64,000 bases of DNA, from positions 59,759 through 123,758 of IMG/VR virus record IMGVR_UViG_3300025310_000004, one strand, 5' to 3'. Positions 4,506 through 60,377 of this stretch are shown one piece after another (the first letter of the stretch is position 1; each line of letters begins with the position of its first letter). Made by a program: the position numbers and the translations under genes. The DNA comes from a virus (lineage: Duplodnaviria; Heunggongvirae; Uroviricota; Caudoviricetes). Under the pieces are notes generated by a model. The model had not been told where the DNA came from and searched no databases. It saw only the letters and a list, made by a program, of their open reading frames with translations.

Positions 4506-5375
4506 GTGCGCGTGCAAGAAGTCGAGGCAGCAGAGCGGAAGTTGCCCAAGGGCCTGTCCCCCTCCTCGATGGAGATGTACCACCAGTGCCCAAGGCGCTT
4601 CGAGGTCCAGAAGATCGATGGTGGTTACGAGCCATCCGGGTATCCGGCCCTGCTCGGCACCTTCGTGCACCGCATCCTTGAGTTGTTGATGCAGCATCCT
4701 CCCGAGGAGCGCACCATCGAAACGGCCAAGGAGTGCGCCAAGAAGGCATGGCCTGAGACGGATGCCGACCCGGACTTCCAACTCCTGCAGTTGGATGAGG
4801 ATGCCAAGCGCAAGTTCCGTTGGTCAGGCTGGCACTCGGTGGAGAACTACTTCACCATGGAGGACCCGAAGTCAGTCGAGGTCGAAGCAACTGAGCAGTG
4901 GGTGGAGGCTCGGATCAACGGGGTGCTGATGCGCGGCATCATCGACCGTCTCGACCGCAACGACACCGGCCAACTCGTCATCTCTGACTACAAGAACGGC
5001 AAGGTCCCCGGTGAGCGCTATCGAGGCTCCAAGTGGGAGCAGTTGGCCTTCTACGCCGCGGTGGTTCAGGACAACCTCGGGATCACTCCCGTCCAAGGAC
5101 GCCTCATCTTCACCGCCCACGGCGAGGTGCTTGAAACCCCGATCAATGACGCTTCGGTCACCAAGGTCATCACCAAGGTCACCGCCACATGGTCAGACAT
5201 CGAGGCCGACTTCCATGAGCGTGGATTCAGGGCGACGCCCAACAACCTCTGCGGGTGGTGTCCGATCCTTCCGGGGTGCCCCGAAGGGATGGCGCACTGC
5301 TACATGCAGATGAAGAAGGGGCGGCTCAAGCAGACTGCTCCTGGTTACGCCGTCGTTCAGCAGTTGTCACGCTGA
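4506..5375 (+). CDS. Cas4/RecB-family PD-(D/E)xK exonuclease with Fe-S cysteines
   Basis: N-terminal YHQCPRRFE, ISDYKNGK (DxK motif), and C-terminal CGWCPILPGC three-Cys cluster. Confidence 0.75.
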   Translation: MRVQEVEAAERKLPKGLSPSSMEMYHQCPRRFEVQKIDGGYEPSGYPALLGTFVHRILELLMQHPPEERTIETAKECAKKAWPETDADPDFQLLQLDEDAKRKFRWSGWHSVENYFTMEDPKSVEVEATEQWVEARINGVLMRGIIDRLDRNDTGQLVISDYKNGKVPGERYRGSKWEQLAFYAAVVQDNLGITPVQGRLIFTAHGEVLETPINDASVTKVITKVTATWSDIEADFHERGFRATPNNLCGWCPILPGCPEGMAHCYMQMKKGRLKQTAPGYAVVQQLSR

Positions 5376-6832: not shown

Positions 6833-7156
6833 TCAGAAGGGGTCGTTGGGGCCAACCTGGGGTGGCTCCACCATGGGTGGCAACGGCCCTTCGTCCAAGA
6901 CCTTCATCTCGACCTCGACATCGCGATCGAATTGCTCGCGTGTCTTGCCGAGGTGGGCGATGGTGTCGTCCACCATCTGCTGCCACCACTCCGACGCTTC
7001 GTTGTAGCCACCCACCAAGGCGGTGTTGATCACCATGATCCCGTAGGGGTGAGCGTTGGCGCGCAGGCAATCGGTGCAGTAGGCGACGCTCATGGGGACG
7101 CCGGGCACAGAAGCGACTCCGACTTCCTCATGTTCGCCGCAGACATCGCATGCCAT
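6833..7156 (-). CDS. Zn-ribbon hypothetical protein (MACDVCGEHEE...CTDC)
   Basis: Internal start at 7156 overlaps the upstream stop (TGATG). Confidence 0.45.
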   Translation of the reverse strand: MACDVCGEHEEVGVASVPGVPMSVAYCTDCLRANAHPYGIMVINTALVGGYNEASEWWQQMVDDTIAHLGKTREQFDRDVEVEMKVLDEGPLPPMVEPPQVGPNDPF

Positions 7157-7560
7157 CAGAAGGGTTCCCCCTGGTTGACCCGATCCAGGGTCAACTGCAC
7201 CCCAGGGTTGTTGGGGTGGTCGGGGTTGATCTGCACCATGGTGATGGATGCCTGCCACTGCTCTCCGCCATCGATCAGGGGGGCAAGACGCTCAGCCACG
7301 GTGCGCGGGACGTGCCCGATCATGCCCTGGTTGCCCAGGGATGGCACATGCACCTCAATGGCGTTGGCGTCGAACTCGTTGTTGGGGTTGCGGATGAGCA
7401 CTGCCGGAAGTGGCTCAGGATCGGTTCCCTGGCCGAACTTCGCTGGCGTCGTCAGGAAGCGCTCAGCCGCGATGTCATTGAGGCGGAAGATGTTACCGGG
7501 GTAGCCCGGCACGAAGGTGACGCCGACCACCTTGGTCTTGAACTGATCGGGCAGAGCCAT
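7156..7560 (-). CDS. HIRAN-domain protein
   Basis: VVGVTFV..., NPNNEFDANAIEV and GHVPRTVAERLAPLIDGG match the HIRAN consensus. Confidence 0.6.
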   Translation of the reverse strand: MALPDQFKTKVVGVTFVPGYPGNIFRLNDIAAERFLTTPAKFGQGTDPEPLPAVLIRNPNNEFDANAIEVHVPSLGNQGMIGHVPRTVAERLAPLIDGGEQWQASITMVQINPDHPNNPGVQLTLDRVNQGEPF

Positions 7561-8291
7561 CAGGACGGCCCCTCGAACCAGGAGTCGATCTCAACGAGGT
7601 CCTCAGGGGTCCACGCGTTGGGGTCGTCGGGGATGTCGTTCGCCCGCAGGAACTTGTCGAGGTCGCGACGATCACGCTCGTTGAGGCCCTCGACCTCCTC
7701 CAACAACTTGTCGAAGTCGATGGGCTTGGTGTCGCCCGACGGCTCGTCCTCCACCACCTCGGCGTCAACGATCGAGTCGTCGCCGGAGTTGATGTCCGTC
7801 TCGTAGCCCCTGGTGTCGGCAGCGGGCTGCACGTCATCGTCGGTGGCATCATGGTCAACGTCGGGACGACCATCGTCGTCGGCGTCACGGCCGCCAGCCT
7901 CGATCTCAAGCGGTGCCGGTCCCGCGGTGAGGGCCTGCCCTGACCCGATGGCCGCCACCTCAGCGTTGCGCTGACGCCACAGCACCAGGGCCTTGAGGTC
8001 CTTGAGGTCGTCGGGGTACCCAGCCTTCTTGAGTGCCCGCCCCAGGGTCTTGGTGCACGCGACGACCCACTCGTCAGGGTCCTTGCGCTTCGGTGCCTCC
8101 TTGTAGGCAACGATCGGCTCCTGACCAGGGATGTGGATGGTGCAGACGCAGAAGTTGCCATCGCCGCCGTACTCGGACGGGATGCCGATGACGGTCCCCT
8201 TCTTCAACTCGAACTCGTGGGTGGCCCGAGGATGGTCCTCAAGCAGCAGCCCCCAACGCAGTCCTGGGCTGGCAAACGTCTCGATGCTCAT
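7560..8291 (-). CDS. hypothetical protein with acidic C-terminal half
   Basis: 243-aa ORF that starts the leftward operon. Confidence 0.55.
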   Translation of the reverse strand: MSIETFASPGLRWGLLLEDHPRATHEFELKKGTVIGIPSEYGGDGNFCVCTIHIPGQEPIVAYKEAPKRKDPDEWVVACTKTLGRALKKAGYPDDLKDLKALVLWRQRNAEVAAIGSGQALTAGPAPLEIEAGGRDADDDGRPDVDHDATDDDVQPAADTRGYETDINSGDDSIVDAEVVEDEPSGDTKPIDFDKLLEEVEGLNERDRRDLDKFLRANDIPDDPNAWTPEDLVEIDSWFEGPS

Positions 8292-8417: not shown

Positions 8418-11400
8418 GTGCCACGATCTGGCCCACTGCGTCGAGTCCAACTGATGACCAACCGGCGCTTGGCGGGGTTTGCCATGGCGCGCCCACAGGC
8501 ATCGGCCTACGCCACCACTGCGGCCCTCACCAAGATCGGCGACATCAAGGCCCCCTACGGCACCGTCGAGGCGTGGCAGCGCGACGCTTACGGCTACTAC
8601 GAGGTCATCGGTGAGGTCGGGTACATCATCGGCATGACGGCCAACACGGTGGCCGCGTGCGAGATCAGGCCCATCGAGGTGGACAACGAGGTTGCCCCCG
8701 GTGGATGGCGAGAGACGGGCGATGAGCGCGTCCTGCGGGTGTGGAATGCCCTCGTTGGACCTCGCGGCGGCAAGGCCGAGTTGTATCGCAAGGCGTCCAT
8801 GAACCTGCAGATCGCGGGCGAGTGCTTCTTGCTCGGCTCGCCGATGGAGGACGAGTTCGGTCGTGAGGCTGGCATCTCCTGGGAGTTCATCTCCCCCGAG
8901 GAGTTGAAGGTCGAGAACTACGGCCGCACCATCAAGCGCAACATGGGTGGCTACGGGGGTCAGCAGATCGTTGACCTCGATCCTGACGCCCACTACATCG
9001 CCCGGCTATGGCGTTCTGACCCAAGGTTCTCAGACCGCCCCGACTGTGCACTCAAGCACGTCCTTCCCATCTGCCGTGAGGTCGTTGTTCTCACCCAGGT
9101 GGTCGATGCCATCGCCAAGTCGCGACTGCCTGCCGGAATCCTGTTCGTCCCCGACGAGATGTCGTTCGGCCCCTACGACGAGACTGAGGACGACAGCGAC
9201 AACACCGACGAGATCGATCCGTTCACCCAGGAACTCATCGACCACCTGACCGCTCCCATCGAGGATCGTACCTCGGCTGCGTCGCTGGTCCCGCTGCTCA
9301 TGCGCGGTCCGGCCGAGTTCTTCGACAAGGTGAAGTTGATCGACATTGCCAAGGAACTCGACACGCTCTACATGGAGTTGCGTCAGGAGGCAATTCATCG
9401 TCTCGCTACCGGCCTGGACGTTCCGCCCGAGATCATGGAAGGCAAGGGCGGCCTCAACCACTGGTGCTTCGATGACCAGACCGAGGTGCTCACCACTGAG
9501 GGGTGGAAGTGCCTCGATGAGTTCGAGGTCGGCGACGTGGTGCTGTCGCTCAACCATGAGACTGGCACCACTGAATGGCGTCCGTCTGTGGACATGTACG
9601 TGGCTGACGTGGTGGATGAGCCGATGTTGAGCATCGAGGGTGATCGTCATTCGTCGTTGACCACGATGGATCACCGTTGGCCCACTCTCCACAGGGTGCG
9701 GGAGAATGTGGTTGACCCCGAGACGGGTCGTAAGACCTCTCGCGTTGTCGGCCAAGAGCGCATCTGGACCACCAGCGAGAAGTTGAACTCCAACGACTCA
9801 CTGATTGTTGGTGCCCGTTCATCGGAGCAGCCCGCCGAGCAGAAGTGGTCTGACGAGTTGGTCGAGGTGGCTGCTTGGCTGTGGACCGAGGGCAATATTC
9901 GGTTCCGTCATCAACGCGTGTCTCCGCAAATCGGCATCTGGCAGTCCATCAAGGTGAATCCTGACAACGTGGCCAGGATCAGGGCGGCGTTGACCGGGGT
10001 GTTTGGACCAGCCCTTGAATCTCTTACTGATGGTGAGGTTGGTCGGCCGACCGGCGATCGCCGTGAGGCGGCCTGGGTAGAGCGGATTCAGCCAGGTCGC
10101 CCCGATATGGTTGAGTTCAGGCTCAACGCCTCGGCGGCTGACGCCCTTGTTGGGTTGTTTGACGACCCCGCCCGCAAGGTCCTCAAGTTGGATTTCATCC
10201 GCGATCTCACCGTGGCGCAGTTGGAACTGTTCATCGACACCTCCATTCGAGCGGATGGCACTGTCTTGCCAGCCGGGACCATTCACATCACGCAATCCGA
10301 CCCCGACCGGCTCGCGCCGTTGGAGTTGGCCGCCATCCTTTCGGGCCGTTCCACCCACCTGTATGAAACGAAGCAGAACGGCACCATGCTGTCGATCTCA
10401 CCAAAGACGACTTTCACCCTGAGCCGCAAGCAGTTGCGGGTTGTGGACTACACGGGTCGCATCTGGTGCCCCACGGTTCCACCTTATCACAGTGTTCTGA
10501 TTCGGCGAAATGGAAAGGTTGCATTTACTGGACAAACCGGCTACAACATCGACGCGGACTTCATCTCCAAGCACGTCTCCCCCCTCGGTGACATGCTCTC
10601 GGAGTTCCTCACCTCGGCCTACCTGCGACCCATGCTGGTGGAGTTCGAGGACATGTCCGAAGATGAGGCATCGCAGTATCGCCTCCTGTTCGACCCCAGC
10701 CGCATCACGTCGCGTACCGACACCGGCCCCAATGCTCGTGCCGCCTACGACCGCACCGAGTTGTCTCGCGTCGCCTACCTGCGTGAGTCGGGCTTTGACG
10801 AGGCCGACGCTCCTGACTACGACGAGCGCAAGGAGCGTGACCTTCGCAGCCTGATGGCCGCCGAGCCGATCATCTTCGGCCCGCAGGTGATGGGCATGCT
10901 GTACCCCGAACTTGAGGGTGAACTCACCCTGCCGGAGAGCAGCGGCGGCAACGACGGGGGCGATCCCGGCAACCCGACTGACGTTCCTGAGCGCAAGAAC
11001 GACACGGGGCCATCATCGCGTCCCGTCATCGACAACGAGACGGGTCAGGACGAGCCGATGCCACGGGGTCCATCTGGGCCTCGCATGGAAGAAACCATCA
11101 TCGATCGGCTCGCTACCGGGGCAGACGCGGCCCTTGAGCGTGCCCTTGAGCGCGCTGGCAACAGGGTGCTGTCCAAGATGAATGGTGCCCACGTCTCGAT
11201 GAAGGACCGCTTCAAGTCCACCCCCAAGACCGAGATCATCTCTGGCGTCAGCGATCGCGAGTTGAGTCAACTTGGGTTGACGCTGACCGACCTGTTCGCT
11301 GGTTCGTGGGACAACCTGGCCGTTCGCGGCAAGGGTTGGCTGCGTCAGCACTTCATCGATCAGGGCATCGACAACTTCACCGCCGACGAGAAGGCAGCGA

Positions 11401-11546
11401 TGGTCATGAACTGTCTGCTCGCACTTCTTGAGGTTGAGGCCATGTCTGCGATGCAGCGCCCCCTGAGGGTTGGGCCGAACGGCTTGCGGGTCCCCAACGA
11501 GATGATCGAGCAGGCCCTTGAGCAGCACGAGAGGATTCCGACATGA
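8418..11546 (+). CDS. portal protein interrupted by an intein (Hint + LAGLIDADG-like endonuclease)
   Basis: 1042 aa. Portal-like exteins surround an insert that begins CFDDQTEVLTTEGW and has a WCP motif near its end. Confidence 0.6.
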   Translation: MPRSGPLRRVQLMTNRRLAGFAMARPQASAYATTAALTKIGDIKAPYGTVEAWQRDAYGYYEVIGEVGYIIGMTANTVAACEIRPIEVDNEVAPGGWRETGDERVLRVWNALVGPRGGKAELYRKASMNLQIAGECFLLGSPMEDEFGREAGISWEFISPEELKVENYGRTIKRNMGGYGGQQIVDLDPDAHYIARLWRSDPRFSDRPDCALKHVLPICREVVVLTQVVDAIAKSRLPAGILFVPDEMSFGPYDETEDDSDNTDEIDPFTQELIDHLTAPIEDRTSAASLVPLLMRGPAEFFDKVKLIDIAKELDTLYMELRQEAIHRLATGLDVPPEIMEGKGGLNHWCFDDQTEVLTTEGWKCLDEFEVGDVVLSLNHETGTTEWRPSVDMYVADVVDEPMLSIEGDRHSSLTTMDHRWPTLHRVRENVVDPETGRKTSRVVGQERIWTTSEKLNSNDSLIVGARSSEQPAEQKWSDELVEVAAWLWTEGNIRFRHQRVSPQIGIWQSIKVNPDNVARIRAALTGVFGPALESLTDGEVGRPTGDRREAAWVERIQPGRPDMVEFRLNASAADALVGLFDDPARKVLKLDFIRDLTVAQLELFIDTSIRADGTVLPAGTIHITQSDPDRLAPLELAAILSGRSTHLYETKQNGTMLSISPKTTFTLSRKQLRVVDYTGRIWCPTVPPYHSVLIRRNGKVAFTGQTGYNIDADFISKHVSPLGDMLSEFLTSAYLRPMLVEFEDMSEDEASQYRLLFDPSRITSRTDTGPNARAAYDRTELSRVAYLRESGFDEADAPDYDERKERDLRSLMAAEPIIFGPQVMGMLYPELEGELTLPESSGGNDGGDPGNPTDVPERKNDTGPSSRPVIDNETGQDEPMPRGPSGPRMEETIIDRLATGADAALERALERAGNRVLSKMNGAHVSMKDRFKSTPKTEIISGVSDRELSQLGLTLTDLFAGSWDNLAVRGKGWLRQHFIDQGIDNFTADEKAAMVMNCLLALLEVEAMSAMQRPLRVGPNGLRVPNEMIEQALEQHERIPT

Positions 11547-15291: not shown

Positions 15292-15624
15292 TTGGGGCTC
15301 GCCGACGAGATCAGTGCATCCCAGGAGAGTCTTTACCGGCGCAGCCGTTCAGCGGTTTGCTCGGTGAAGTTCATCCTCGACTATCTCTCTCCTGAGGACA
15401 GGAAGGCGCTCCAAGCCCTTCTTGACGACAAGCGCGTGTTCGGCACCTCCATTGCCGAGTTGCTCAACGGATGGGCACCCAAGGTGGAGATCGCTGCAGA
15501 AGATGAGAAGGACTCGGCGCGCTCTGCCGAACTCATTCATCTCGCTCAGTTGTGTGGCTCCATCTCCGATGGAACCGTTCAGCGCCATCGGCGCGGAAAG
15601 TGTCTCTGTGCTGAGGACGCCTGA
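15292..15624 (+). CDS. hypothetical protein
   Basis: 110-aa ORF with an AGGGGG SD. Confidence 0.45.
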   Translation: MGLADEISASQESLYRRSRSAVCSVKFILDYLSPEDRKALQALLDDKRVFGTSIAELLNGWAPKVEIAAEDEKDSARSAELIHLAQLCGSISDGTVQRHRRGKCLCAEDA

Positions 15625-16868
15625 TGGCCGACAAGCGTCTGACCGAGGACGTTCCTCAGTTGAGCATCATCAGCGACGCCAACCGGGTCGTCGCTGAGAC
15701 AGAGCGGCGAACCGTCAAGCACCCCAAGGGGTGGGAGCCTGGCGTCGCGTTCGATGGCCAAAGCGGCGTGATCTCGACCGGCCCGCGCACTGCCCCCAGC
15801 GCCCCCAGCGACAACGACTGGCTCGATCTGCTCGCCATCTGGAACCTCGACCCTGAGGTCTACGAGGTTGACCCCGACTACAACCCGGAGTTCCGAGCGT
15901 GGGACGCCAACATCGGTGGTGGAGAGGTTCAGCGGTTCTACTACTACAAGGCTCGTATCCGCCTGCGCCACCAGCGCTATGGCATCGATATGGACGAGGT
16001 GCTCGATGGCATCCGTCGGTGGAAGCGCCTCAGGGCAGTGCCCACCGGACCTCACTCGCTAGTCGTTCCTGTGTCGGACTGGCAGATCGGCAAGGGTGAT
16101 GGCGACGGCGTGCGCGGCACTGTCGATCGGATCATGACCTCCTTCGATCGGCTCGAAGATGTCATCGATGACCTCAAGCGCTCCAAGATCGGCCTTGAGT
16201 GCCTCTACTTGATCGGCATGGGCGACCTGATCGAGCAGTGCACCGGCAACTACCCGGCCCAGGCGTTCACCACCGAGTTGAATCGGCGCGAGCAGTTGCG
16301 ACTCACCTTCCGCTGCATGCGCGATGGAGCAGCACGTCTCTCGCGCAAGATGGATCGCATGGTGGTCGGTGGGGTCGCTGGCAACCACGGCGAGAACCGC
16401 ATCGACGGCAAGTTGTATACGACGCCCGGAGACAACGACGACCTGTTGGTGATCGAGATGGTCGCCAACGCTCTCTTGGAGAACGACGAAGCGTTCGGCC
16501 ACGTTTCGTTCGCCATCCCCGAGGAGAAGTTGTGGCTCGTGCTGGACATCTCCGGCGTTCCCGTCGGCTTCACTCATGGCCACCAAGCAGGACGTGGGGC
16601 TACTCCGCAGCAGAAGCAGAAGGAGTGGCTCAAGGACATGGCCTTCGGTGACCACGACATCGGCCAGGCCCGCATCGTGGTGACGGGCCACTACCACCAC
16701 TTGTCGGTGATCGATCACGGTCCCAAGGTGCACATCCAGTGCCCAGCGATGGATGGTGGGTCGCAGTGGTGGATCAACCGCACCGGATCGGACTCCTCCC
16801 CCGGCACCGCTTGTTTCGTCGTATCATCGGAGTACCGAATGGGGTTCGATCATCTCCGAGTGGTGTGA
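15624..16868 (+). CDS. calcineurin-like metallophosphoesterase (Mre11/SbcD-type motifs) with N-terminal extension
   Basis: GMGDLIE, AGNHGE, GHYHH and GH motifs. Confidence 0.6.
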   Translation: MADKRLTEDVPQLSIISDANRVVAETERRTVKHPKGWEPGVAFDGQSGVISTGPRTAPSAPSDNDWLDLLAIWNLDPEVYEVDPDYNPEFRAWDANIGGGEVQRFYYYKARIRLRHQRYGIDMDEVLDGIRRWKRLRAVPTGPHSLVVPVSDWQIGKGDGDGVRGTVDRIMTSFDRLEDVIDDLKRSKIGLECLYLIGMGDLIEQCTGNYPAQAFTTELNRREQLRLTFRCMRDGAARLSRKMDRMVVGGVAGNHGENRIDGKLYTTPGDNDDLLVIEMVANALLENDEAFGHVSFAIPEEKLWLVLDISGVPVGFTHGHQAGRGATPQQKQKEWLKDMAFGDHDIGQARIVVTGHYHHLSVIDHGPKVHIQCPAMDGGSQWWINRTGSDSSPGTACFVVSSEYRMGFDHLRVV

Positions 16869-36632: not shown

Positions 36633-38594
36633 GTGGAGCCGATTCAGATTCCTGAGGACCTCGCGGGTCTATCGGATGAGGAACTGACTTCCCTAGGCGT
36701 TGAGATCAGGGAGCGTGTCGAGGGTCTGGCCGAGGAGGCCCGCACTTCCGACGAGGCTCTGTCTCAGGTCGAGGGACTCATTTCCGACTTCGATCGGATC
36801 AACGAGGAACTCAACAACCGTGAGGAGGCCGCAGCGAACCGCTCGGCTCGCCTCGATGCCGCTCTTGAGCGGTTTGGTCCTGCCGAGGGCGAGGACACCG
36901 ACGAGGCCACCGAGGAGGCCGTCGCCGAGGAGGCCGAGCAGGACTCGGCTGACGAGGAGGCTGCAGCCGAGGAGGACACCGAGGTGAGCGAGGACGCTGA
37001 GGCCGATGCTGATGCTGTCGCCGCTTCCACCGAGGACGAGGCCACCGCCGAGTTCACCGCTGAGGACAGCACCGACACCCCGGATGAGGCACCCGCCGAG
37101 TCCACCACCGAGTTCACCGCCGAGGTGGAGGCCCCTGAGGCCGCTGCTGAGGAGTTCAACGCCGAGGACAACCAGTCCGAGGACTTCACCACCGAGGACG
37201 AGCAGTCCGACGAGTTCACCAACGAGGAGGTCACCGAAGTGGCTGCTTCTGACGACCGGACCCCCAAGGTGTCTCGCCTGCGCGAGCGTCGCCCGGAGGC
37301 TGTCGCCCCCCGCTCCCAGGTGGAGCGGGCCGGTGCCACCCTTGCGGCCCGCTTCGCTGGCGGCAACACCGTCGAGGGTCAGCCCATCGACATCCCCACG
37401 CTGGCCCAGGCCATCGTGGACAAGCGCCTAGCCATGGGCAACGTGCCCAGCGGCATCTTCGACAAGATCACCGTGGCCTCCGCCACGATGGAGTTCGGCG
37501 ATGACGTGGTTGGCGGCGGTGCCCAGGAGAACTTCTCCACCCTGCGCCGGGTCGCCGAGCGCAACACCCAGGTCCGCGAGGAGATCACCGCTCTGGTGGC
37601 CTCCGGCGGCGTCTGCGCCCCGTTGGAGCCGTCCTACGACTTCTTCCGGCTGGCAGAGGCCATGGACCCGGTTGAGCGGTGCCTCGGCACCGTCGGCGCT
37701 CCCCGTGGAGGCATCCGCTACATCCAGCCGCCGGACTGGCGTGACGCCTGCGCTGGCGTCCGGGTCACCACCGAGGCTGAGGACGCCGCTGGCTACGTCA
37801 GCCAGGGTGGCCCCACCCCTGACAAGCCCTGCGTGGCCGTCGAGTGTCCTCCGATCTTGGAGTGCCGCGTCGATGCCGTCTCGCAGTGCGTGACCTTCGG
37901 CAACCTGAACTACCGGGTGTTCCCCGAGCAGGTTGAGGCGTTCCTGGCCGATCTGTCGGTGTGCTTCTCCGAGACGAAGGAGATTTTCTACCTCGACGCG
38001 ATCGACGCCGCCTCGACCCCGGTGACCGCTGGTCCCTCCCCCTACGGCGCTTCCCGCGCTGCGGCCTACGACCTGTCGGTGGCCGCCGCCAACTACCGCC
38101 GTCGTCACCACATGTCGCCGGATGCGACCTTGACGGTGCTCCTGCCCTCCTGGGCGATCGAGTTCCTCAAGATCGACATGCTCAACGACCACTCGTTGGG
38201 CCTGGCGAACTGGTGCCTGTCCGACGCCGACGTTGCTTGCTGGTTCGCCCAGAACAACCTCGACGTGTGCTTCTACTACGACTCGGCCACTGGTGCTGGC
38301 CAGGCGTTCAACGACATCCAGGCTCCTGGTGCCATCAACCAGTGGCCTGACACCATGGTGTCGTACATGTTCGCCCCCGGCACCTTCGTCCGGCTCGACG
38401 CAGGCACGCTCGATGTCGGCCTCATCCGCGACAGCGCCCTCAACGGCACCAACGACCTGCAACTGTTCGCTGAGCAGTGGATTCAGGTCTGCAAGGTCGG
38501 CATCGAGTCGCTCCGCATCGAGCACACCCTGTGCCCGACGGGTGCGGCAACCGAGCCGGTCCCGCCGCTGGTCTGCGCTGCAGGCGTCTCCTGA
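36633..38594 (+). CDS. major capsid protein (HK97-like C-terminal region) with long N-terminal coiled-coil/acidic scaffold-like domain
   Basis: N-terminal ~250 aa are coiled-coil plus Glu/Asp-rich repeats. The C-terminal ~400 aa look capsid-like. Confidence 0.5.
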   Translation: MEPIQIPEDLAGLSDEELTSLGVEIRERVEGLAEEARTSDEALSQVEGLISDFDRINEELNNREEAAANRSARLDAALERFGPAEGEDTDEATEEAVAEEAEQDSADEEAAAEEDTEVSEDAEADADAVAASTEDEATAEFTAEDSTDTPDEAPAESTTEFTAEVEAPEAAAEEFNAEDNQSEDFTTEDEQSDEFTNEEVTEVAASDDRTPKVSRLRERRPEAVAPRSQVERAGATLAARFAGGNTVEGQPIDIPTLAQAIVDKRLAMGNVPSGIFDKITVASATMEFGDDVVGGGAQENFSTLRRVAERNTQVREEITALVASGGVCAPLEPSYDFFRLAEAMDPVERCLGTVGAPRGGIRYIQPPDWRDACAGVRVTTEAEDAAGYVSQGGPTPDKPCVAVECPPILECRVDAVSQCVTFGNLNYRVFPEQVEAFLADLSVCFSETKEIFYLDAIDAASTPVTAGPSPYGASRAAAYDLSVAAANYRRRHHMSPDATLTVLLPSWAIEFLKIDMLNDHSLGLANWCLSDADVACWFAQNNLDVCFYYDSATGAGQAFNDIQAPGAINQWPDTMVSYMFAPGTFVRLDAGTLDVGLIRDSALNGTNDLQLFAEQWIQVCKVGIESLRIEHTLCPTGAATEPVPPLVCAAGVS

Positions 38595-59600: not shown

Positions 59601-60377
59601 ACCCGCGGTTACACCGATCGGATGACCGAGGAGCAGCAGAAGTACCTCGTGCAGATCGGGCTTCCGCCGGACTTCGACATCGACGGCGCCCTCCCGGCTG
59701 GATTCGACCTTGCTGAGTGGCGCTCGTTCCTGGGGGCCAACAAGAAGCCTGGGAGTTGGCCGTTCATCGCCGCCTACCTGAATGCTGCCGGGATTCCCTT
59801 CCTGACCAACTCGACGCTACGTCCCGGTGATGTCGGCTCTTACCACGCCTCGGGTCGCGCCATCGACCTCGGTGCCCCTGGTGACGCCAACTACGACTCG
59901 CCCGGACTTCTTCGCATCAACCATGCCCTGGCCCCCCTGCTGGGCGTGCTGGCCGAGTTGATCTACTCCGGCCCCGGCGGCATCAGTGACAAGGCATACG
60001 ACGCCGGGACGATGGCGCAACACCACAACCACGTCCACGCCGCCCTGCGCGATGGCGGGATCGTTCAGGACCTCGTGTACGCCATGCTTGGCGAGGACGG
60101 CCCCGAGGTGGTCATCCCGCTGAACGACCCCAACCGCGCTCTGAGCCTGGCTCGTCGCTCGGGACTGCTGCGCACGCTGCAGGGCGCCCAGAACCGTTCC
60201 ACCTCCTACTCGCCCCCCTCGGCCGTATCGGACGCCCGGAGTGCCACCACAGGTGGCGACGACGACGGAATCCTGGGCGGCGCCGGCAACACCTACCACA
60301 TCCACGGCATCTCCTGGGACCAGGCCCGCAAGAAGATCGAGAACAGGGATCGGGCGGCCCTTCGCCGCCGCCGCTAG
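53667..60377 (+). CDS. tape measure protein
   Basis: 2236 aa with helical/Ala-rich repeats and TM segments. Duplicated motif GGIV..FARIGEDGPEVVIPL. C-terminal zinc-peptidase-like H..D...HNHVH. Confidence 0.9.
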   Translation: MANVVGSATIRIIPDTSGFSAALRGQLNTLTSQVGAMGGRNITGNLSTQLNTLGTSLDRTGTRAALVGQAFTYGLTRPLIRAGEAIIGVAADFDEAARTVAAVTIPDPIEGVFESMDMFEGRVQQYKDSAREMARETVFSSTEVEKAYVDLARAGLTSADQLESVIGTVANVALVEGGSMADFSDKLVQIFTGFGGNFEEVGEQYETIFGDVRATTADLTAEFEHMGDILALTSQRTVTDITDLAVAFRYAGPTAKAAGLSFEETAAGLGLLAQAGFSASMGGTALRGIITRLAIPTKLSEEIFEKFGMTMEQAFQPENAARLQDTLHSMGVAQEEIDEIMAGGAQGFREAQDAIAEYGFEVFDAAGNMRPLVDIVEEFVDKGARVGDISKVFGQRAGPAFQGLMDNLPALQRLTVELDGAEGALDRMAERMKTSASVQFKLLKNSLIELAIAFGESGVLKFFSDLAADLRDFALGLADTNPQILKIVGAVAALVAAIGPVGLVFGLWTQGLGKFIQFLGFVVSGPIGAFVAAMTVIGATIGFLISRSEALGTAFGALFDSIMTVVGPIAEQFGRFIAGVVGGIGKLAEMLGNYLAPAVADTADKINDWVEGGGLFKFLSDSINWVGDLANKVFDLWQQFKLAGGLETVENGLSAVREAADRLVAIFIDLWDASQPIFTNLLPALRDVGSALATTVGAAFVVAWNAASGFLSAIELLVDVLKPVLGFLGDNLTNVLQILVMWFLRTRSSIDQAVIGFGRLGQAADRSLGMFGNFFGGAAQRVDGFTLRVSDAVARVSVALTTMSASASVAAGRFSAAIFRMGDRAGSILRGLSRGFQTFANVTKNVMANSSAILSGFFAGQMAAQATTFKDKIVSLGTVFVSMATSIAMLPGPAGLALAVLTGIAAIMGNLLGKAEEWDALTFDMGGSIRTLSAEFEKMGTTDMPIGQTLDAFNDQLEGMDPRNVAIMKNNIEELGFSMTDLGEAFMGGEEEVAKFVDTLGQTFADQVMAGTIESERFGITVRRSFGMGDRGPEEYATAWGDIATEIGKAGDELFYVTVNGEKVGEGFTDAAGAATRLKEIFDKDFLGQAVRDFGTAIDAARDKFDATRTIQRLVMAEQTDLNERAKGWSTRIEEANSGLDRARSKIANLFKGPDDPAEATARLFESIDQSIASLMIDGNLMLTPPDPTSPQAGAWYDSMEQITGNAQQVLAGIALEIPPVAPPEIKRAEFERRFGEMRAIYMSALQRPVAEGGRGMTQTQANEFLNTIMPMPSEEQITAWLGDQDIVAAQIPDLARIFNLPASGERIDAFVNIQSMITGPLDPNAQGDLASVLRTGNIDVLARINLALEEGVGLPAGMTSATLANLLATGQLGISQYDAFINVWPSVNGLESLSEQQRSIITAAFARGNVTDTQQINSYLSVFQNPLPPGLTYDMLTALLGFDVIEPKQLTAYVNLLGGALPTGWNAEKINQLLTTGNMSLGQVEVFLRVIPEIPVIAGLDPAQVQDLVQKMAGSGATQQQINATLNIISGDPAKFAEIQSILNAGLNPVKIPVYFDVQNANPNMTPQQIVELINFAAGFNFAEGGIVTSETFARIGEDGPEVVIPLTKPDRAASLMADSGLYQFAFKTAMAGGVPPGIINIANATPYSGFVIDPNALPAPAAVGGGGPVSMTLPGATVSGAVPPVTDVLVNVVLVLVGAELVLATFSAIVNSALAMAGTIGSAFAIMNIQTIESLQGVMGTLLQIISITPALLEMVATIGAGFTSMAFVVVTAITAIVQALSLIPIVMASVGESIARGFSRPFNLIASSVWNPFASFINSAATALGLGPLLPTGLSIPVFHKGGIVGDATGDSYDGSRSTTQDEVFALLQKGEGVMSKQMMANMTAAQISAFKKGEKRWWAVGGPYESGKGQAGTRIDSGYAYNSPDIPNFEQTKAFYEGTIKPLIGSVTTAYPGNLAANIGGTSMSRLGDAAVEYTRGYTDRMTEEQQKYLVQIGLPPDFDIDGALPAGFDLAEWRSFLGANKKPGSWPFIAAYLNAAGIPFLTNSTLRPGDVGSYHASGRAIDLGAPGDANYDSPGLLRINHALAPLLGVLAELIYSGPGGISDKAYDAGTMAQHHNHVHAALRDGGIVQDLVYAMLGEDGPEVVIPLNDPNRALSLARRSGLLRTLQGAQNRSTSYSPPSAVSDARSATTGGDDDGILGGAGNTYHIHGISWDQARKKIENRDRAALRRRR

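Follow-up and report, generated by a model that had tools for sequence, protein, structure and literature searches.

Mycobacteriophage Bethlehem carries an RDF intein (gp51/gp52) that undergoes complete splicing and has an endonuclease that is toxic to E. coli (Kelley et al., 2016; PMC5050341). Kelley et al. treat this intein as class 1, and replacement of its penultimate Gly by His results in slower splicing (PMC5050341). Inteins within phage portal genes have been catalogued as well (PMC5050341; bioRxiv 10.1101/2025.01.02.630785). The 784-intein actinophage survey of Gosselin et al. resolves them into five groups placed in its class 1 tree, and loss of the penultimate His is common in phage class 1 inteins (bioRxiv 10.1101/2025.01.02.630785). 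Here we analyse an insertion in the portal gene of an uncultured phage, located in a 64,000-nucleotide stretch (positions 59,759 to 123,758 of IMG/VR record IMGVR_UViG_3300025310_000004) that we refer to as the window. A preliminary description of the window had proposed an intein with an endonuclease inside the portal gene, and the predicted fold, the continuity of the exteins and homology to the Bethlehem RDF intein all agree with that proposal. The insertion is very probably a bifunctional intein whose Hint domain is interrupted by an in-frame LAGLIDADG endonuclease with two motifs, and it is lodged within the portal at NHW↓S/T (the arrow denotes an insertion point or splice junction throughout).

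The boundaries of the insertion were determined by aligning the portal open reading frame (ORF) of the window with the intein-less portals of Arthrobacter phage Pointis and Pseudanabaena phage Pam4 and with the intein-bearing portal of Gordonia phage Belphegor. N-H-W is invariant across the four proteins, and the insert sits between this tripeptide and a T/S-[GA]-[WY] motif. The corresponding junctions are NHW↓TGYNIDADF in the window, NHW↓TGWLLDENAIK in Pam4 and NHW↓SAWQADESAIK in Pointis, and the intein-less portals align uninterrupted across the insertion point. Fourteen homologous inteins begin with Cys and end in F/Y-T-G-N, followed by S, T or C. The intein-less portals and these homologues together place the end of the insert at ...KVAFTGQ↓T, with CAA (Gln357, 10533..10535) as the last intein codon and ACC (10536..10538) encoding Thr+1. 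The element consequently spans 9465..10535 and 357 aa (Table 1), near the 9470-10520 and ~350 aa given at first. The preliminary description located the start correctly, at CFDDQTEVLTTEGW in block A; it put the end near WCPTVPPYHSVLIRRN, a motif that is present, but whose IRRN lies inside block F, eight residues before the true end at FTGQ↓T.

Removal of the intein in silico leaves a protein of 685 aa when counted from the GTG at 8418, or 673 aa from the ATG at 8454. Against the portal profile phrog_776, the spliced product gives a single alignment (its residues 19-580 with positions 13-558 of the 620 in the profile, E 6e-100), which is a better match than that of the unspliced protein, where the profile aligns in two separate stretches (E 1.9e-92). 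The flanks are thus one contiguous portal, as had been anticipated. Against Pfam, the spliced portal matched only Phage_portal, at a sub-threshold E of 0.055 and across the junction, and no match to it was found among PDB sequences.

An AlphaFold model of the intein computed from an 11-sequence alignment has a predicted local distance difference test score of 92.6 and a predicted template modelling score of 0.89. The best full-length PDB matches to this model in Foldseek are inteins that bear homing endonucleases: TliVMA (7qsu, E 9.5e-15), followed by PI-SceI and PI-PfuI, with E-values of 1e-14 to 1e-12 across the three. These structures (PDB 1vde, 1dq3 and 7qsu) have the same combination of Hint and LAGLIDADG domains (TM ~0.55-0.63); they differ from the window intein in being canonical class 1 inteins with a His-Asn terminus, and are only 10-13% identical to it. 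The central domain by itself matches I-DmoI and I-SceI (E ~1e-5). Within this alpha/beta domain the LAGLIDADG helices occupy residues 130-142 and 250-264, each is followed by strands, and both end in an acidic residue (Glu142 and Asp264) of a pseudo-dimeric alpha-beta-beta-alpha-beta-beta-alpha fold, the arrangement of a two-motif LAGLIDADG protein. The segment VAAWLWTEGNI, described earlier as LAGLIDADG-like, belongs to the first of the two motifs. Pfam LAGLIDADG_3 scores 27.6 bits (cut-off 22.5) on the homologous stretch of the intein of phage Pinkcreek and 20.2 bits on that of phage Woes.

The splicing blocks contain the N-terminal residues of a class 1 intein, Cys1 and Thr67-x-x-His70, together with Thr+1. 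They also contain all three positions of the Trp-Cys-Thr (WCT) triplet, namely Trp72 (B:12), Cys335 (F:4) and Thr355 (G:5), which makes the earlier reading of a WCT-like block F stronger than it was claimed to be. The terminus is Gly-Gln, and the absence of a classical His-Asn end was correctly remarked upon. The Bethlehem RDF intein is matched over its whole length by the profile of the window intein family (hhalign probability 99.4%, E 4e-21, 1-342 of the profile against 1-317). Cys1, TxxH, ...VWC... at F:4 and ...LTGN↓S (Thr G:5 and penultimate Gly) are shared between the two, as is an in-frame LAGLIDADG homing endonuclease; the Bethlehem intein differs in its metallophosphoesterase host, in having Val rather than Trp at B:12 and in its Asn end, and is ~23% identical. 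Closer in context is the portal intein of Belphegor gp9 (PV366776), which occupies the same site of the same portal family (NHW↓C...N↓SAWSLDE), carries a CWCTG signature and is 40% identical over the intein. Phages Woes and GX15bay and the sequence P0004 have inteins of the same family in other portal contexts, and for gp8 of Gordonia phage Woes the annotation 'contains intein' is already on record. The portal inteins of Belphegor, Woes, GX15bay and P0004 all end in Gly-Asn, in contrast to the Gly-Gln of the window.

By tblastn, the family is present in only 39 deposited phage genomes. Its hosts there are portals (Belphegor, Woes-like phages and GX15bay), TerL (GMA3, GordTnk2 and GordDuk1), DNA polymerases (Pseudomonas KIL phages and Escherichia phages), T4-like gp55 (Synechococcus phage B23), a DNA methyltransferase and Pinkcreek gp135. 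When 1.84 billion cluster representatives were searched with a profile, at most 18,705 matched at E<=1e-3 and at most 2,963 at E<=1e-30, both upper bounds since the profile carried some extein columns. Portal inteins, called far rarer than terminase inteins in the preliminary description, are less common than these in cultured actinophages (6 PORT inteins, reported in cluster C1 mycobacteriophages, against 50+6+33, ~89, of terminase type; PMC5050341), but they are catalogued and are abundant in metagenomes. Searching the window with the family profile, and for inteins of the type found in the portal of its relative L010 (see below), disclosed no further copies. The window intein itself scores E 6e-139 against the family profile in hmmsearch, partly by construction, its sequence being in the profile alignment.

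Conservation was counted over the 141 full-length intein domains contained within the best 150 matches, which are representatives of 50%-identity clusters. Cys1 and His B:10 are present in every domain (141/141), Cys F:4 in 140, and Thr B:7, Trp B:12, Thr G:5 and Gly G:6 in 139 each. G:7 is Asn in 139 and Gln in two, and the +1 residue is Ser in 83, Thr in 51 and Cys in 7. The acid that closes LAGLIDADG motif 1 is Glu in 132 domains and Asp in 6 (acidic in 138/141), and that of motif 2 is Asp in 135. Forty-eight of the 141 directly follow NHW, the portal site used in the window, and 54 do so when SHW, AHW and THW variants are included, which indicates that this allele is common in nature. The intein is real, but as a mobile element in a large phage family that has been catalogued before it is fairly ordinary, and its main peculiarity is the Gly-Gln end. 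What is particular here is that end, the family-wide mixed class 1/WCT signature and the uncultured phage lineage. Several family members stand in GenBank without an intein annotation (Table 1). The Pinkcreek host protein is a Bixzunavirus 'hypothetical protein' whose gene adjoins baseplate J.

Four Gln-ended inteins were found: that of the window, that of the IMG/VR relative L010 (75% identity), P0047 (69%) and P0151 (54%). In a neighbour-joining tree the four group as one clade, and the sister of this clade is an intein that ends in Asn and lies in a portal of the same TGYN type; a change from Asn to Gln takes two nucleotide substitutions. The exact 1030-aa portal product of the window is also present on contigs of two independent SRA runs, so the sequence, unusual terminus included, did not arise as an artefact of assembly or sequencing. 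Among public contigs this product was matched from the ATG at 8454, where public gene calls begin the portal, and products starting at the GTG at 8418 or the ATG at 8484 were not found. Because Gln has been retained down to 54% identity in a portal, a protein needed for head assembly, the pattern argues that a C-terminal Gln works in splicing. Gln-terminated inteins of other lineages have been shown to splice (Pyrococcus abyssi PolII and Chilo iridescent virus RNR), and Gln cyclisation has been demonstrated in these and in Methanoculleus marisnigri PolII (PMC4031507). Those PolII and RNR inteins resemble the window intein in having Gln for Asn; they belong to unrelated lineages and hosts, and in the window intein Gln is joined with a penultimate Gly and Cys F:4.

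Block F of the Gln-ended clade also departs from that of the rest of the family, with the usual G-T-W-[LF]-A-R-R replaced by S/T-V-x-I/V-R/S-R (Trp to Val). This change may compensate for the greater length of a C-terminal Gln. The window and L010 inteins additionally have a one-residue insertion with a His in block F (PPYH and PPHH, respectively). Co-variation of this His with the terminal Gln was considered and rejected, as P0151 ends in Gln and lacks the His.

We consider that the element probably, if by no means securely, splices by a class 1 route. The portal would be translated as a 1030-aa precursor in which Cys1, assisted by Thr67-x-x-His70 of block B, would form a thioester with Trp(-1), and the N-extein would then be transferred to Thr+1. 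Gln357 would cyclise to a glutarimide without help from a penultimate His, Gly356 being at that position, and the C-terminal junction would thereby be cleaved. A final O-to-N shift would yield the 673-aa portal with the junction ...GGLNHW-TGYNIDADF.... In co-infections, portal alleles that lack the intein would be cut at the NHW↓T/S site (in nucleotide form ...GGCAAGGGCGGCCTCAACCACTGG↓ACCGGCTACAACATCGACGCGGAC...) by the endonuclease, whose putative metal-binding acids are Glu142 and Asp264, and repair would copy the intein into the cut allele.

Several observations weigh against this reading. Splicing, the identity of the initiating cysteine, Gln cyclisation and endonuclease activity are what we infer from sequence and model. 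The canonical His-Asn terminus is replaced by Gly356-Gln357, though the +1 nucleophile is present. Block F:4 is Cys335, where class 1 inteins typically have Asp. PI-SceI, PI-PfuI and TliVMA have Asp at this position. The WCT triplet, which is invariant, has been published as the hallmark of class 3 inteins, and this leaves initiation by Cys1 insecure. Profile searches were also weak: Pfam PT-HINT, Hint_2 and Hint align with the first ~50 residues but all fall below their cut-offs (E 0.0075-0.16), an NCBIfam scan of the whole portal protein returned no match, and Pfam LAGLIDADG_3 does not match the window intein's own sequence. With phmmer, the intein retrieved from PDB sequences only noise and a weak match to a bacterial intein-like (BIL) domain; a profile search gave only weak N-terminal matches to mini-inteins, which are uninformative on splicing class. 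The Hint-domain search suggested in the preliminary description hence has a weak outcome if taken literally, which is overridden by the fold and by the homology to the RDF intein. As for the terminus, functional inteins in which the G:6 His is replaced, and others with Gln in place of the G:7 Asn, are documented (PMC4031507, PMC5050341).

The sub-threshold scores of the curated intein and Hint models would also suit a domain that does not splice, an endonuclease or Hint-like decoration that is kept in the mature portal. We regard this as scarcely credible for an element that has the Hint fold and nucleophiles at both junctions, sits inside the invariant NHW motif and is the end-to-end homologue of an intein proven to splice, and whose relatives reside in hosts as unrelated as TerL, DNA polymerase, gp55, a methyltransferase and a phosphoesterase. 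A decayed intein, in which Gln and the lost penultimate His have killed C-terminal cleavage and left the portal a pseudogene or dependent on a helper phage, would account for a terminus that is doubly non-canonical, and Gln does slow splicing in the P. abyssi and M. marisnigri PolII inteins (PMC4031507). Decay is nonetheless very improbable: Gly at G:6 is the family norm and outperforms His in the related RDF intein, Gln is kept throughout its four-sequence clade, and the reading frame has neither frameshifts nor stops and combines low nonsynonymous divergence (dN) with saturated synonymous divergence (dS). The other catalytic residues are intact, and the portal gene, present in single copy, encodes an essential virion component, the identical protein recurring in independent metagenomes.

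The competing initiation mechanism deserves closer weighing. In a class 3 route Cys335 would attack the N-terminal junction to form a branched thioester at block F, from which the N-extein would pass to Thr+1, with Cys1 dispensable or serving as a redox switch. The class 3 inteins MP-Be 'DnaB' (Bethlehem gp11, TerL), Msm DnaBi1 and Mch DnaB1 have in common with the window intein the WCT triplet, Ser or Thr at +1, phage association and a similar spacing from F:4 to the terminus. In the family all three WCT positions are near-invariant, Ser or Thr, the class 3 preference (PMC2807308), occupies +1 in 134/141 domains, and the distance from Cys F:4 to the end is 21 in most members, as in MP-Be, Msm DnaB-1 and Mle DnaB (22 in the window). 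Tori et al. recorded Ser1 or Cys1 in 3/37 WCT inteins and left their mechanism for later (PMC2807308). On the other hand, proven class 3 inteins have lost both the N-terminal nucleophile and the 'spring-loading' block B Thr (PMC6195587), with Pro1/Ser62 in MP-Be and Ala1/Asp62 in Msm DnaBi1, while keeping His-Asn; the window intein has the first two and not the last. The MP-Be prototype has Pro1, Ser62, His65, Trp67, Cys320 and Thr339-His-Asn341↓Thr, and hhalign of the window family against it, the only class 3 prototype compared, gave 9.6% over the endonuclease region only, as opposed to the 99.4% obtained with the class 1-treated RDF intein. The class 1 placement of portal inteins by Gosselin et al. 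(bioRxiv 10.1101/2025.01.02.630785) points the same way. We therefore hold class 3-type initiation by Cys335, or a relay through both cysteines, to be fairly unlikely.

Near-perfect conservation of both cysteines is accounted for by neither textbook scheme. It is conceivable, though unlikely, that this Cys1-WCT-Gly family does not belong plainly to either class 1 or class 3 and uses both invariant cysteines as a mechanistic bridge. The Cys1 thioester might then be relayed via Cys F:4 to a weak Ser or Thr nucleophile at +1, or a Cys1-Cys335 pair might act as a redox gate on portal maturation; in the Gly-Gln clade the branched intermediate would be resolved by His-independent glutarimide formation. 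The class 1 route through Cys1, Thr+1 and Gln357 remains the reading that we prefer.

The comparison with L010 (IMGVR_UViG_3300020233_000057) bears on the mobility of the intein. Identity between the two phages is 75% over the intein, 57-58% over the conserved parts of the exteins and 39% over the C-terminal tail. Synonymous sites are saturated (proportion of synonymous differences, pS, 0.67-0.88), and dN/dS is ~0.09 for the intein and ~0.12 for its endonuclease domain, from which the intein is judged to be under purifying selection and its endonuclease under maintenance. The intein of the window is foreign in composition to its gene, having a GC content of 0.59 and a third-position GC content (GC3) of 0.71, whereas both exteins have 0.63 and 0.80-0.82; its lowest GC3, 0.56, is in the C-terminal Hint segment. 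In the lower-GC relative L010 the relation is reversed, with GC3 of 0.61 in the intein and 0.49-0.53 in the exteins. These contrasts in identity and GC3 indicate that the history of the intein is partly independent of that of the host gene, as expected for an intein that is still spreading by homing.

A second, unrelated intein is present in the portal of L010, the closest relative. It is a classical mini-intein of 148 aa (CVAEGELV...VWDLTVPGPANFIVQGVVVHN↓C) inserted at LPI↓CREIVLL, and the equivalent site in the window is empty, reading an uninterrupted LPICREVVVL with the Cys+1 in place. Together with the NHW intein it defines two independent intein insertion sites in one portal lineage.

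The window is phage DNA that holds genes for the portal, a major head protein and a tape measure protein. A megablast search of window positions 1-25000 against 50,697 deposited phage genomes found no near relative, and a portal scan against genome contigs matched no relative. The portal stop overlaps the start of the following gene in an ATGA. The 1229-aa product of this gene is a four-part composite. A 2',5'-RNA-ligase/2H-like domain (phrog_2659 and, weakly, Pfam 2_5_RNA_ligase2) makes up its N-terminus; the other parts are a long low-complexity stretch rich in acidic residues, two tandem copies of a domain of ~110 aa (...YYRNIFAWQDPEGDP...HHEVSEDG... and ...YYNKIYAWVDSNGDP...HHVVSESG...) and the C-terminal half listed in Table 1. 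Divergently transcribed from the portal, and upstream of it, are genes for a HIRAN-domain protein and an SSB, labels that come from gene calls on an identical Logan contig (L012). With two exonuclease-like ORFs, these place replication and repair genes directly at the flanks of the head module.

Table 1. Coordinates of the portal intein, its host gene and other features. Positions are those of the window unless another locus is named.
Feature	Coordinates	Strand	Basis or remark
Portal ORF, open from GTG 8418	8418..11546	+	TGA stop at 11544..11546
Portal precursor gene	8454..11546	+	phrog_776 portal, E 1.9e-92
N-extein, ends ...GKGGLNHW	8454..9464	+	phrog_776 profile positions 13-343
Intein, 357 aa, Cys1 to Gln357 (ORF residues C350..Q706)	9465..10535	+	Intein-less portals and 14 homologous inteins
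C-extein, begins TGYNIDADF	10536..11543	+	phrog_776 positions 347-558, E 6.5e-24; aligns with intein-less portals
Splicing block A, CFDDQTEVLTTEGW	9465..9506	+	Cys1 at 9465..9467
Splicing block B, GDRHSSLTTMDHRWP	9639..9683	+	Thr67 (B:7), His70 (B:10), Trp72 (B:12)
LAGLIDADG homing-endonuclease domain, in frame, ~intein residues 117-320	9813..10424	+	Model secondary structure, Foldseek
LAGLIDADG motif 1, LVEVAAWLWTEGNI (LVEVAAWLWT-E142-GNI)	9858..9899	+	Glu142, putative catalytic acid
VAAWLWTEGNI	9867..9899		Lies in LAGLIDADG motif 1
LAGLIDADG motif 2, AQLELFIDTSIRADGT (AQLELFIDTSIRA-D264-GT)	10215..10262	+	Asp264, putative catalytic acid
Splicing block F, RIWCPTVPPYHSVLIRRNG	10458..10514	+	Cys335 (F:4) at 10467..10469
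Motif WCPTVPPYHSVLIRRN	10464..10511		Within block F
Splicing block G, KVAFTGQ↓T	10515..10538	+	Thr355 (G:5), Gly356 (G:6), Gln357 (G:7), Thr+1
ORF antisense to the intein	9819..10358	-	
ORF antisense to the intein	9030..9755	-	
Empty site for L010-type mini-intein, LPI↓CREV	9063..9083		Uninterrupted
Mini-intein in portal of L010	3149..3592 of L010		148 aa
Intein in Belphegor gp9	3646..4641 of L001		Without intein annotation in GenBank
Intein in Pinkcreek gp135	1561..2583 of L004		Without intein annotation in GenBank
Intein in GMA3 TerL	1768..2778 of L005		Without intein annotation in GenBank
Intein in GordTnk2 TerL	1501..2472 of L006		Without intein annotation in GenBank
Intein in Synechococcus phage B23 gp289 (cyanophage)	1558..2577 of L009		Homologue of T4-like late sigma factor gp55; without intein annotation in GenBank
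Gene after portal, 1229 aa	11543..15232	+	C-terminal half matches head-maturation-protease and portal-labelled phrogs
Divergent region next to the portal	7156..8291	-	
HIRAN-domain protein	7156..7560	-	
Exonuclease-like ORF	4506..5375		
Exonuclease-like ORF	15624..16868		
Major head protein	36633..38594		
Tape measure protein, 2236 aa	53667..60377		

The portal gene of the window should accordingly be annotated as encoding a 673-aa mature portal and a 357-aa mobile intein rather than a 1030-aa portal. The GenBank records of Belphegor gp9, Pinkcreek gp135 and the GMA3 and GordTnk2 TerL genes, which carry relatives without annotation, call for a like correction. That the intein exceeds its host gene in conservation, and has a GC3 between those of two hosts, points to ongoing homing among diverged phages. 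As a large and uniform family that combines class 1 N-terminal machinery, a full WCT triplet and a Gly-Gln subclade, these inteins are a convenient natural test set, suited to asking what residues determine the splicing route and how Gln cyclises without a penultimate His. If the use of both cysteines were true, the family would constitute a bridge between the splicing of class 1 and that of class 3 within an essential virion protein.

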